From Candidatus Latescibacterota bacterium (lineage in GTDB: Bacteria; Latescibacterota; UBA2968; UBA8231): a stretch of DNA of 64,000 nucleotides. Shown piece by piece: positions 55,645 through 58,485 of the stretch. Every line of letters begins with the position of its first letter. Position 1 is the first letter of the stretch. The notes below the pieces were generated by a model. The model ran no database searches. It saw nothing but the letters and a program-made list of their open reading frames with translations, and was not told where the DNA came from. The stretch covers positions 3,904,001 to 3,968,000 of the forward strand of contig CBDETY010000003.1 of the NCBI GenBank assembly GCA_965243025.1, in the 5' to 3' direction. Made by a program: the position numbers and the translations under genes.

Positions 55645-55857
55645 GGGATCCCATGCCGCTCGCGTTGCCGCGCAGGCGCCAGCGGATCGCCTCGAAGCGG
55701 CGCTCAAAGCCCTGGTAGTAGCCATTTCGTTCAGTTATCCATATCAAAAGTCGGAGTGAAACCGGGATGATGTTGCCGCCGGCACCCCGGCTCTCCGCCA
55801 TTTCGTTTCCGGTTCGAGTGACATGCGGGTCCCCGAACCTGAACCGCGCTGTTGGCT

Positions 55858-57618
55858 TTACTCCCGGATCCCTATGTGGAGTTCCCGCAACTGCTCAGGC
55901 GAGACCTCGCCCGGTGCGCCCATGAGCGGATCCTGCGCATTCTGGTTCATCGGGAAGGCGATGACCTCCCGGATGTTCGGTTCGTCCGCCAGCAGCATGA
56001 CGATGCGGTCGATGCCGGGGGCGATGCCGCCGTGGGGCGGAGCGCCGTAACGAAAGGCGCGGATCATTCCCCCGAACCTGCGATCCACTTCCCGCCGCGC
56101 ATGTCCGGCAATCTCGAACGCCTTGTACATGATGTCCGGCCTGTGGTTGCGGATGGCACCGCTCGACAGTTCGAGGCCGTTGCAGACGATGTCGTACTGA
56201 TACGCCTTGACCTCCAGCGGCGGTTGCGTCTCCAGCGCAGCCATGCCGCCCTGCGGCATGGAGAACGGGTTGTGCGAAAAGGCCACGCAAGCGCGTTCCT
56301 CGTCCCATTCGTACATGGGAAAATCGACGACCCAGCAGAATTCATAACAACCCTCCCGCCGCAGGTCGAGCCGGTCTGCCAGATGCAGGCGCAACCGTCC
56401 CGCCAGGGCCGCTGCCTCGGATGGCGCGCCGGCGATGAAGAAAACGGCTGACCCCGGAGCGGCTGCGCAGTGCTCGAAAATGCGGCTGCGCACGCTCTGT
56501 TCCAGGGCGGCGGCAAATGATCCTGTGGCCTGCGCTCCGTTGATTAGGTAGGCCAGCCCCTTGCCGCCCGCCTCTTTGACGAATGCTTCGAGGCCGTCGA
56601 AAAACGAGCGCGGCTGCCCTTCCATCTCAGGAACGCACAGGGCGCGGACGACCCCGCCTGCTGCGACGATGTCCCCGAACAGCCTGAACGAGGAGTCCGC
56701 GAAGATCCCGGTGAGGTCCTGGATTTCGAGACCGAAGCGCAGGTCTGGTTTGTCCGTGCCGAACCGCAGCATGGCGTCGGCATGGGAAAGACGCGGGAAC
56801 GGCGGCGCGGTCACTGCCCAATCGGTGAACTCGCGGAAGAGACCGGAAAAGAGTTCCTCGACCACGGCGAAGACGTCCTCCTGTTCGACGAAGGCCATCT
56901 CGAGATCGAGCTGGTAGAATTCGCCGGGGGAGCGGTCGGCGCGGGCGTCTTCGTCGCGGAAGCAGGGCGCGATCTGGAAGTAGCGGTCGAAGCCGGACAC
57001 CATCAGCAACTGCTTGAACTGCTGCGGCGCCTGCGGCAGCGCGTAGAAGCGGCCGGGATACAGCCGGCTCGGCACGAGGTAATCGCGCGCGCCCTCGGGC
57101 GAACTGCTGGTGAGAATGGGCGTCTGGAACTCGGCAAAGCCCATCTCCGTCATGCGCCGCCTGATGCTGGCGATCACTTCCGAGCGGAGCTGAATGCGGC
57201 GGTGCAGCCCTGCCCGGCGCAGGTCCAGGAAGCGATAGGACAAGCGGGTGCTCTCCCCCACTTCGGGATCTTCGGCCACGGAAAAGGGGAGCGGCTCCGC
57301 CGGCGAGAGCACTTCCAGCTCGCGAACGGCGATTTCCACTTCTCCCGTCTCCATCGCGCTGTTGACGGTCTCAAACGACCGTTCGCGCACGTCGCCTGCG
57401 ACGCTGATTACGGATTCGCGGGGGACCTTTGACGCGATTGCCGCAGCGTCATTGTCCGGCAAGATCACGAGCTGGGTGATACCGTAGTGGTCGCGCAGAT
57501 CCAGGAACAGTATGCCTCCGTGGTCCCTTTTGCGATGCAGCCAACCGCTCAGGCGAACGGTCTGGCCGGCGTGGCGCTTGCGAAGTTCGCCGCAGGTGTG
57601 GGTGCGATAGCGGTGCAT
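55858..57618 (-). CDS. aspS: Aspartate--tRNA ligase, probably non-discriminating (Asp/Asn)
   Basis: [45 protein letters not shown]; RBS GGAGG. Confidence 0.97.
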
Positions 57619-57646
57619 GGCCACCTCCAGTTTTTGGATGTACATG

Positions 57647-57679
57647 AAAAACCGCCGTCGGCGCGAGGCTCAACGGCGG
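57647..57679 (-). terminator. Attenuator terminator 2 upstream of aspS
   Basis: mRNA CCGCCGUUG-agccucgcgc-CGACGGCGG-UUUUU (9-bp stem plus U-tract). Confidence 0.85.
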
Positions 57680-57702
57680 GTTGGGGTGAGAGTGTAATCC
57701 GA

Positions 57703-57795
57703 TCACGGCCAACGCCATCGAGCCCGAATGGCGGGATTATTGTCGTCGTTGTCATGCGAAATAGCGCGTGCCGTGTGCTTGTAGCGAAATGTCAT
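57703..57795 (-). CDS. Leader peptide 2 (30 aa, MTFRYKHTARAISHDNDDNNPAIRARWRWP)
   Basis: SD UAAGGAG; six consecutive Asp/Asn codons; 3' end overlaps the antiterminator arm. Confidence 0.85.
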   Translation of the reverse strand: MTFRYKHTARAISHDNDDNNPAIRARWRWP

Positions 57796-57809
57796 CTCGT
57801 AAACTCCTT

Positions 57810-57850
57810 AAAACAGAAAACCCGCCGCGATGCGTGTTCGCGACGGGTTT
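57810..57850 (-). terminator. Attenuator terminator 1
   Basis: mRNA AAACCCGUCGCGA-acacgca-UCGCGGCGGGUUUUCUGUUUU (13-bp stem, U-tract). Confidence 0.85.
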
Positions 57851-57879
57851 GGGATTCTCGGATTCGGTTGGAGCAGTCG

Positions 57880-57966
57880 TCAGAACACGCGTAATGGGGC
57901 GATCGGATTATTGACGCCGGCGTTGGCTGGATAATTCTGCCTGCGGTCTTTCTGACGGGCCATCAT
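57880..57966 (-). CDS. Leader peptide 1 (28 aa, MMARQKDRRQNYPANAGVNNPIAPLRVF), near-leaderless
   Basis: ATG 8 nt after the -10 box; four Asn codons ending in NNP; stop codon lies within the antiterminator arm. Confidence 0.72.
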   Translation of the reverse strand: MMARQKDRRQNYPANAGVNNPIAPLRVF

Positions 57967-57974
57967 GCTCTTGC

Positions 57975-58003
57975 AACGTATGAGGAGGGCCGCACTCCGT
58001 CAA
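57975..58003 (-). promoter_or_regulatory. Sigma70-type promoter of the aspS leader
   Basis: TTGACG-17 bp-TACGTT on the minus strand, just after the soxR stop. Confidence 0.7.
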
Positions 58004-58014
58004 ACCCGCTTCCT

Positions 58015-58485
58015 TCAACCGCCGGATGCGCCCACTTTCCCGGAACCTCCCATCAGGGAACTGCCGTCGACGCGGGATGCCATCTCGTCATCCCGGTTGA
58101 AGAGCGAGCACGACCGCAGGGACAGGCAGCCGCAGCCTATGCATCCCGTGAGGTTCTCTTTCAACCGCTCGAGCGTCTCAATCCGCTCTTCCAGCTGATC
58201 CCTCCAGCCCCTCGACAGGCGTGCCCAGTCCGCCTTGTTCGGTGTGCGCCCGTCCGGAAGCGTGTCCAGCGCTGACCGGATTTCCCGGAGCGGCACTCCG
58301 ATTCTCTGGGCGGCCCGAATGACGGCGACGCGGCGCAATACCGCCTGTCGATACCGGCGCTGGTTCCCGCCGGTCCGCTCCGAGGCGATCAGGCCCTCGG
58401 CTTCGTAAAACCGCAACGCAGAGGTCGCGACTCCGCTTCGCGCCGCTACGTCCCCGATGGTCAAAGTGGGTGAAAGTGGTGCCAC
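58015..58485 (-). CDS. soxR: Redox-sensitive transcriptional activator SoxR
   Basis: MerR HTH, GNQRRY and CIGCGCLSL..C [2Fe-2S] motif. Confidence 0.96.
   Translation of the reverse strand: MAPLSPTLTIGDVAARSGVATSALRFYEAEGLIASERTGGNQRRYRQAVLRRVAVIRAAQRIGVPLREIRSALDTLPDGRTPNKADWARLSRGWRDQLEERIETLERLKENLTGCIGCGCLSLRSCSLFNRDDEMASRVDGSSLMGGSGKVGASGG

Follow-up and report, generated by a model that had tools for sequence, protein, structure and literature searches.

What controls the aspartyl-tRNA synthetase gene (aspS) at 55858-57618 of a stretch of 64,000 nucleotides (nt) from a Candidatus Latescibacterota bacterium (contig CBDETY010000003.1, positions 3,904,001 to 3,968,000; the window, all coordinates of which refer to the minus strand unless stated otherwise)? 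An earlier note had read the gap in front of this gene as a tandem leader-peptide attenuator sensing asparagine and aspartate. We directly observed the anatomy, conservation, codon pattern and folding potential of this leader together with the gene inventory of its host, and the leader-peptide reading was supported in silico by codons, folds and conservation. At a probability of roughly 80%, judged from sequence and modelled folds, the leader would consist of two ribosome-mediated transcription attenuators in series. One part of the earlier proposal had to be corrected. The gene downstream is indeed aspS, but it is an accessory second copy, called aspS2 in the following, and not the only aspS of the cell.

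The 395-nt gap between a soxR-like MerR gene (58485-58015) and aspS2 holds a promoter, a first leader open reading frame (ORF1), terminator 1, a second leader open reading frame (ORF2) and terminator 2. Each of the elements named in the earlier note, down to the Shine-Dalgarno (SD) site of ORF2, was present and accurate to the base. The promoter (57975-58003) was read from the sequence as a -35 box TTGACG (58003-57998), a 17-nt spacer and a -10 box TACGTT (57980-57975). A consensus promoter scan called no promoter, because the -10 box fits at only 3 of 6 positions. ORF1 (57880-57966) has 28 codons plus TGA and encodes MMARQKDRRQNYPANAGVNNPIAPLRVF, with asparagine codons at positions 11, 15, 19 and 20 followed by proline; the adjacent pair AAT AAT is found at 57912-57907. 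Terminator 1 (57810-57850) comprises a 5' arm (57847-57838), a loop (57837-57831), a 3' arm (57830-57821) and a U tract (57820-57810); the terminator pattern scan gave 13 pairs, with the stem at 57847-57821 and, including the A/U extension, at 57850-57818. The SD site AAGGAG (57804-57809), also read from the sequence, precedes ORF2 (57703-57795), which has 30 codons plus TGA, encodes MTFRYKHTARAISHDNDDNNPAIRARWRWP and carries a six-codon control run at 57753-57736 (D15 N16 D17 D18 N19 N20), again followed by proline. Both control blocks end in AAT AAT CCN, and the Asn-Asn-Pro ending reported before is therefore seen in the sequence. Terminator 2 (57647-57684; 5' arm 57679-57671, loop 57670-57661, 3' arm 57660-57652, U tract 57651-57647) is visible in the folds and was overlooked by the pattern scan because its loop exceeds 8 nt. 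The gene aspS2 itself starts with ATG at 57618 behind an SD site GGAGG (57628-57624) and encodes an accessory bacterial-type aspartyl-tRNA synthetase (AspRS2) of 586 amino acids.

The codon pattern of the leader ORFs was compared among relatives. Of 29 genomes examined, 28 had an ORF1 unbroken from ATG to TGA, and ORF2 was intact at all 16 tandem loci extracted, typical leader peptides being MMTRQNDRTQNNNNPLVPLRVF for unit 1 (ORF1 with terminator 1) and MTFRHKHTARAFSHNNDDNNPAIRARWRWP for unit 2 (ORF2 with terminator 2). Asparagine accounted for 20.9% of the codons of ORF1 homologues (139/664) and 14.4% of those of ORF2 homologues (68/471), compared to a genome-wide background of 2.34% (1,996 long ORFs of G000, the genome of the window). 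The share of AAT among asparagine codons was 0.60 in ORF1 and 0.44 in ORF2 versus 0.139 genome-wide, where AAT is a rare codon. In the unit 1 run, the three final codons encoded N or D in 81 of 84 cases, using 10 different nucleotide strings, and the last six codons of the unit 2 run did so in 92 of 96 cases with 11 strings. Substitutions within the runs were AAT/AAC, GAC/GAT or N/D swaps. As the runs vary only among Asn and Asp codons, the constraint acts on codon meaning and not on RNA sequence. The runs of unit 1 are Asn-only; those of unit 2 mix Asp and Asn. An SD-like motif was found before ORF2 in 15 of 16 homologues and before ORF1 in none of 28. The distance of the ORF1 ATG to the promoter is fixed, with TTGAC[AG] found 30-31 nt before the ATG in 20 of 28 homologues, which places the start 8 nt from the -10 box. 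Because ORF1 has no SD site and its ATG, in the window as well, follows the -10 box by 8 nt, it probably has a leaderless start.

These data bear on an alternative in which the leader switches as RNA alone and the ORFs play no part. It would then be a riboswitch, or an operator to which a protein (e.g. AspRS) or a tRNA binds, with the A-rich AAUAAU block as binding site or linker. We consider it improbable. The 3' two thirds of the units are highly conserved in nucleotides (49 invariant columns among 6 sequences from 5 genera in the unit alignment), and the last ORF2 codons show no synonymous change in 15 of 16 sequences, as would be expected for such a switch. However, these nearly nucleotide-invariant last codons of each ORF coincide exactly with the antiterminator strands described below, the N/D block changes its nucleotides and keeps its codon meaning at the frequencies just given, and 28 of 29 genomes retain the ORF1 start, stop and frame, with an SD-like motif before ORF2 in 15 of 16. 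Moreover, the divergent leaders of G021, G022 and genus g13 share little beyond an Asn run, an ORF and a terminator. No Rfam family matched either. Using cmscan for 57300-58400 at E<=10, no family and no T-box was found; there were two chance-level matches, CrfA at 20.1 bits (gathering score 38; terminator hairpin only) and Collinsella-1 at 12.6 bits.

For the folding analysis both units were folded with the ribosome footprint masked; dinucleotide shuffles of the upstream part (n=500) and slid controls were used for comparison. In unit 1, region 1 (CGUCAGAA, 57950-57957) pairs with UUCUGACG at the end of the ORF in the minimum free energy (MFE) fold of untranslated RNA, where it would serve as anti-antiterminator. 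Region 2 (GCGUGUUC U GACG, 57878-57890) supplies the 5' strand of the antiterminator and overlaps the last ORF1 codons and the stop codon, and region 3 is the 5' arm plus loop of terminator 1 (57845-57832). In unit 2, region 2 (GGCUCGAUGGCG UUGG, 57710-57725) lies inside the last ORF2 codons and provides the antiterminator's 5' strand, and region 3 is found at 57684-57681 and 57678-57667, so that antiterminator 2 is formed by GGCUCGAUGGCG paired with CGCCGUUGAGCC. For the free RNA of unit 2 in G000, the terminator was predicted to form (MFE -45.2 kcal/mol), while the 5' part of the ORF sequestered the antiterminator strand. Whichever of the six control codons the ribosome was placed on, the fold changed to the antiterminator, 9 of 11 arm bases being captured, and a ribosome at the stop codon restored the terminator. 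With the 3' arm not yet made, antiterminator 2 reached -29.1 kcal/mol versus -18.0 kcal/mol for the hairpin of terminator 2, and in unit 1 the two values were about equal (-17.7 kcal/mol for the antiterminator, -17.9 kcal/mol for the hairpin of terminator 1). The observed capture and energy were reached by 6 of 500 shuffles for unit 1 and 0 of 500 for unit 2.

Across relatives, antiterminator 1 was paired in 98.1% of 312 cells (7/500 shuffles) and antiterminator 2 in 97.6% of 255 cells (3/500 shuffles), with two compensatory pairs each; slid controls yielded 10-55% of cells paired. Terminator 2 was paired in 100% of 144 cells. The compensatory pairs are supportive of the antiterminators, not decisive. 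In G021 and G022, the most divergent sequences, the antiterminator would be made instead by a copy of the terminator 3' arm within the ORF, and the predicted switch logic is kept there though the sequence differs. Conservation of the Asn/Asp codons and of the stems in relatives, both proposed as tests in the earlier note, was hence observed, and the comparison with Rfam proposed there gave no match; these outcomes favour the reading of the note.

How closely is the leader tied to aspS? In a DNA search of 41 relatives, unit 1 was as conserved as coding sequence (76-83% identity) and was found directly before aspS in other genera too, single or doubled. A covariance model built from the 3' part of unit 1 was searched in 76 genomes of the family and matched in 34 of them. 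The 30 best matches were all located just upstream of an orthologous aspS; 28 of these were confirmed by tblastn; of the other two, one (G019) preceded a truncated copy and one (G056) fell at the end of a contig. Among the four weak matches, three were a Gln-rich leader of glnS and one (G013) was an ordinary terminator. Unit 2 was found by the model in 13 genomes about 170 nt downstream of unit 1 (E 1e-4 to 9e-3), and an ORF search added it in G000, G062, G066 and G070. Altogether, 17 tandem (G000 and 16 others) and 13 single arrangements were observed. Matched weakly by the unit 1 model, unit 2 looks like a diverged duplicate of unit 1. Genus g13 (four genomes) has a divergent Asn-rich stretch and a terminator that escaped the covariance model; counting these, an Asn-rich leader and a terminator precede aspS2 in 33 of 35 genomes bearing the gene. 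In G052, the region upstream of aspS2 is lost at a contig end.

The same data leave very little room for the view that the hairpins are ordinary terminators or insulators, e.g. for the soxR-like gene, and the small ORFs a product of chance. Both hairpins are canonical intrinsic terminators, and the whole 400-nt leader folds no more stably than shuffles (z = -0.36), a value uninformative for a switch. However, the upstream neighbour gene varies between genomes carrying leader and aspS2, the element thus accompanying aspS2 and not its neighbour. Similarity to other genera is bounded by the -35 box and the aspS2 stop codon, asparagine is enriched about nine-fold, and shuffles rarely match the antiterminators.

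A further alternative accepts translation of the ORFs and assigns them a different signal, namely general translation capacity, the nascent peptide, or a pause at N-N-P involving EF-P or Pro-tRNA. It would agree with the proline following the run in 25 of 28 unit 1 and 15 of 16 unit 2 sequences and with the conserved C-terminal peptides PLRVF and RARWRWP. We nevertheless judge it unlikely. Proline is absent and the Asn run kept in G022, in unit 1 of G021, in unit 2 of G076 and in the four g13 leaders, the codons conserved at the C-terminus fall on the antiterminator strand, and the leader of glnS has Gln codons in a similar scaffold.

The regulated gene was assigned by profile searches. The AspRS of the window matched NF001750 (797 bits, cut-off 443) and TIGR00459 (603 bits, cut-off 373.85) over its full length, with PDB relatives at E of about 1e-153. 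G000 carries two bacterial-type aspS genes (727 and 603 bits), of which the window copy is the lower-scoring one, as well as asnS (472 bits, cut-off 342.6) and gatB. No asnA was found in G000 by profile search, and no asnB above cut-off, the best match reaching 102-108 bits versus 267 and lacking the N-terminal part of the profile. A leader was seen upstream of none of aspS1, asnS and gatB in this genome. The housekeeping gene aspS1 is present in 75 of 76 family genomes and its product is 42-47% identical to the window protein; the aspS2 type, taken as at least 60% identical to the window protein, was found in 35 of 76. Remnants of aspS2 were detected in G019, G065 (two TGA stops), G016 and G083. 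In 56 genomes of three other families of the class aspS2 was not found. Outside the family, the proteins closest to its product are AspRS of Alphaproteobacteria (56-66% identity over 200 residues), and the copies of the family form one clade (Shimodaira-Hasegawa-like approximate likelihood ratio test, SH-aLRT, 99). On these phylogenetic grounds aspS2 is assigned as a horizontally acquired accessory copy of alphaproteobacterial type. At 80 aspS loci outside the family, mostly of Alphaproteobacteria, no Asn leader was found; there were five chance ORFs, none with a terminator.

In a Caulobacter control genome gatB was present and asnS absent. In Alphaproteobacteria of this kind, having gatB without asnS, AspRS must therefore charge tRNA-Asn. 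Because its alphaproteobacterial relatives must do so, because of the Asn control codons and because gatB is present, we lean towards a non-discriminating AspRS2 that serves asparagine supply. AsnB above cut-off was found in 10 of 35 genomes with aspS2 compared to 26 of 41 without it, so that the two complement each other only in part. A module in which aspS2 and GatCAB co-occur was rejected, since gatB was found in 73 of 76 genomes regardless of aspS2. Two observations concern individual genes of this inventory. At about 4.82 Mb of contig C3 of G000 (L057 1189-2955), an asparagine-synthase-like ORF of 588 amino acids (108 bits) lacks the first ~110 profile positions and weakly resembles models of the XrtA/PEP-CTERM amidotransferase and of lasso-peptide cyclase; it is probably not AsnB. 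In G019 (L007 1452-2980), promoter, leader ORF (MNNNPTKTGDNNPPDLLRVF) and terminator are intact, and aspS2 starts at about residue 180 and later loses its frame, which from its sequence is a decaying copy.

How would the two units act together? From the elements above we infer ribosome stalling, termination, their logic and the specificity of the enzyme as follows. Transcription would start about 8 nt before ORF1, which makes its leaderless translation probable. When charged tRNA-Asn is plentiful, the ribosome would reach the ORF1 stop codon and cover GCGUGUUC-U-GACG, terminator 1 would form and the transcript would end near 57810. When charged tRNA-Asn is scarce, the ribosome would stall at the Asn codons, mostly the rare AAT, the free 3' end of ORF1 would pair with the 5' arm plus loop of terminator 1 and the polymerase would read on. 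Unit 2 would repeat this test with its own SD site, six Asp/Asn codons, a stronger antiterminator and terminator 2. In untranslated RNA, the 5' part of each ORF would hold the antiterminator strand, making termination the default. Asn-tRNA would thus be sensed first by unit 1, and Asp/Asn-tRNA second by unit 2. The output would be the product of two read-through probabilities, with a low basal level, a response that rises steeply as Asn-tRNA(Asn) runs short, and Asp-tRNA as second input. Together with GatCAB, a probably non-discriminating AspRS2 would supply Asn-tRNA(Asn), and hence asparagine, without a recognisable asparagine synthetase.

Several observations weigh against two serial attenuators or the role proposed for them. 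ORF1 of G000 has only four Asn codons, two of them adjacent, with a binomial P of 0.004 alone, so that the case rests on the comparison with relatives. Most of the sequences compared come from one genus and are about 90% identical, and they are linked by gene transfer and thus not independent. Every compensatory pair stems from one sequence, leaving covariation thin. The anti-antiterminators agree with the data, being paired in 94.5% of 200 cells (unit 1) and in 88.4% (unit 2), but show no covariation, and the unit 1 helix is missing in the short ORF of G019. In the equilibrium MFE fold of G000 unit 1 the terminator persists even with a stalled ribosome. Antitermination would therefore depend on the order of synthesis, the antiterminator forming first in a kinetic manner; unit 1 of G058 and G004 switches in masked folds. 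In G062 (L048), a TAG lies in frame four codons ahead of where ORF1 usually stops, and an in-frame ATG is absent; its terminator 1 and unit 2 are intact. In G006, aspS2 is found without a leader. Finally, gatB (73/76), asnS (70/76) and glnS (72/76) are near-universal in the family, and 15 of the 41 genomes without aspS2 are also without AsnB above cut-off, for which reason the housekeeping AspRS may itself be non-discriminating. The physiological rationale for aspS2 is incomplete.

Does the leader travel with its gene? Between G000 and genus g14, nucleotide identity of about 90% is confined to 55857-58006, bounded by the aspS2 stop codon and the -35 box; it is exactly at this box (58003-58006) that similarity to other genera begins. 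The cassette thereby delimited, from the -35 box through the aspS2 stop codon, measures 2.15 kb. AspRS2 of G000 is 92-93% identical to the g14 proteins and nested among them (SH-aLRT 94). Its AspRS1 is 69% identical to that of g14 and 88% identical to that of the congener G002. The congeners G001 and G002 are without aspS2. By this comparison, leader and aspS2 are to be regarded as moving between genera as one cassette, and the cassette looks recently transferred into the G000 lineage. Placed on the tree, the tandem state requires at least six changes, at least two of them on well-supported branches, and is present in the deepest branch (G021). Given the tandem state in the deepest branch and the repeated changes, repeated loss of unit 2 is the simplest reading. 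Single-unit leaders showed two types of junction. In one, the U tract of terminator 1 and the SD of ORF2 are fused to the aspS start; in the other, terminator 1 is followed by the sequence normally found after terminator 2. Comparing L026, L027, L033, L038 and L042 with L022 and L041, one junction lies between SD sites and the other between terminators, which suggests independent deletions of unit 2.

As a tentative extension, the cassette may be a self-contained mobile asparagine-supply unit, consisting of a promoter, a leaderless Asn-only gate, an Asp-or-Asn gate and a non-discriminating AspRS. It would carry its two-stage, ribosome-read logic along between genera and be expressed only when the Asn-tRNA(Asn) of the host fails. 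If this were true, the exchange of Asn for Asp codons, and the reverse, in gate 2 would record in evolution the dual specificity of the enzyme, and in g13 the C-terminal tail of lysS would act as control peptide of the attenuator. In three genomes of this genus (G080, G082, G014), the Asn-rich stretch (e.g. ...DNNRDNNNQGNNN...) was found in frame with the lysS C-terminus as a tail of about 45 codons (minus strand, L064 about 620-830, L065 about 610-820, L010 1619-1808), followed by the terminator and aspS2. In the fourth genome, G081, the homologous Asn-rich stretch forms a small ORF of its own behind another gene.

How does the aspS2 leader relate to known systems? Classical leader-peptide attenuators are represented by trpL, hisL, leuL, thrL and pheL of Enterobacteria and by Rfam leader families. 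With these attenuators of amino-acid operons the aspS2 leader shares a short ORF with a run of cognate codons, mutually exclusive antiterminator and terminator, and termination as default after read-through of the ORF. Unlike those, it has Asn/Asp control codons, two serial units and a probably leaderless ORF1, its target is a tRNA synthetase paralogue and not a biosynthetic operon, and it has no Rfam sequence match. The pheST attenuator of E. coli uses the leader peptide pheM and is a single unit reading one amino acid for an essential housekeeping enzyme. In both cases an aminoacyl-tRNA synthetase gene lies under a leader peptide rich in cognate codons, but here the gene is an accessory paralogue and two units would read Asn and then Asp/Asn. 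T-box riboswitches, tandem ones included, respond to uncharged tRNA with read-through of a terminator before an aminoacyl-tRNA synthetase gene. In contrast, sensing is proposed here to occur via translated codons and not by binding of tRNA to RNA.

The earlier note knew of no tandem Asp/Asn attenuator for aspS. The literature searched, which included portions of PMC2659441 and PMC4833913, yielded neither an attenuator with Asn or Asp control codons nor a leader peptide of aspS or gatCAB, and an earlier prediction is possible. A precedent for tandem leader ORFs is given by the mgtCBR leader of Salmonella, where two short ORFs (mgtM and mgtP) each have their own attenuation structure (Lee and Groisman, 2012, PMC3641672). 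According to the same paper, the two mgtCBR units answer unrelated signals, ATP and proline, in an additive manner, and mgtP senses charged tRNA via a codon run. Two ORF-coupled attenuation units on one leader RNA were likewise predicted here, in G000 and 16 further genomes. Unlike in mgtCBR, the signals read by the two units would overlap and be linked to what the regulated enzyme produces, and each unit has its own canonical intrinsic terminator. Thus, the mechanism itself is classical attenuation, its tandem leader-ORF form having a precedent in mgtCBR; particular to this locus are the series with distinct codon make-up, the mobile accessory paralogue, the probably leaderless ORF1 and the lysS-fused variant.

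For the enzyme, the nearest comparison is with Thermus and Deinococcus, where AsnRS occurs alongside an AspRS that does not discriminate (ND-AspRS) plus GatCAB as the only way to obtain asparagine (Sheppard et al., 2008, PMC2330236). The inventory of G000, with asnS, gatB and an extra aspS and with neither AsnA nor AsnB above cut-off, matches this arrangement. The extra AspRS of Thermus and Deinococcus is of archaeal type. In contrast, the extra AspRS here is bacterial and alphaproteobacterial-like, only inferred to be non-discriminating, and gatB is family-wide (73/76) with or without aspS2.

If correct, two serial attenuators before aspS2 would extend ribosome-mediated attenuation to Asn/Asp and to the transamidation route, such regulation having been found described for neither. 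A natural two-stage attenuator in which both stages would read the products of the regulated enzyme offers a system for asking what a series adds, e.g. lower leak or a steeper response. The control codons would also hint, from sequence alone, at the function of an unannotated paralogue, an aspS under Asn codons being probably non-discriminating; many genomes carry two aspS genes, and this control-codon rule could be used there as well. In the cassette, regulatory device and gene would travel as one unit.

Further observations concern related leaders and the surroundings of the locus. In G053, G015 and G059, a Gln-rich small ORF (QQQRQQQ; e.g. MNALYQQQRQQQRIYDNARRRFLHW) plus terminator was found directly before glnS (minus strand, L060 about 560-650, L061 about 560-680, and L062), matching the model of the aspS leader weakly. 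In this leader too the control codons agree with the synthetase, and its sequence suggests an attenuator through which glutaminyl-tRNA synthetase would respond to glutamine. None of 31 further family genomes, G000 included, showed it. In G071 (L049), about 50 nt carrying a hairpin of their own (CTCCCC...GGGGAG) are inserted between the -35 box and ORF1 and divide the promoter region. The upstream neighbour in the window (58015-58485) is of the MerR family and carries a C-terminal CIGCGCLSLRSC motif, for which we take it to be SoxR-like. About 52 nt of the 3' end of this gene recur at 92-94% identity at several sites in related genomes.

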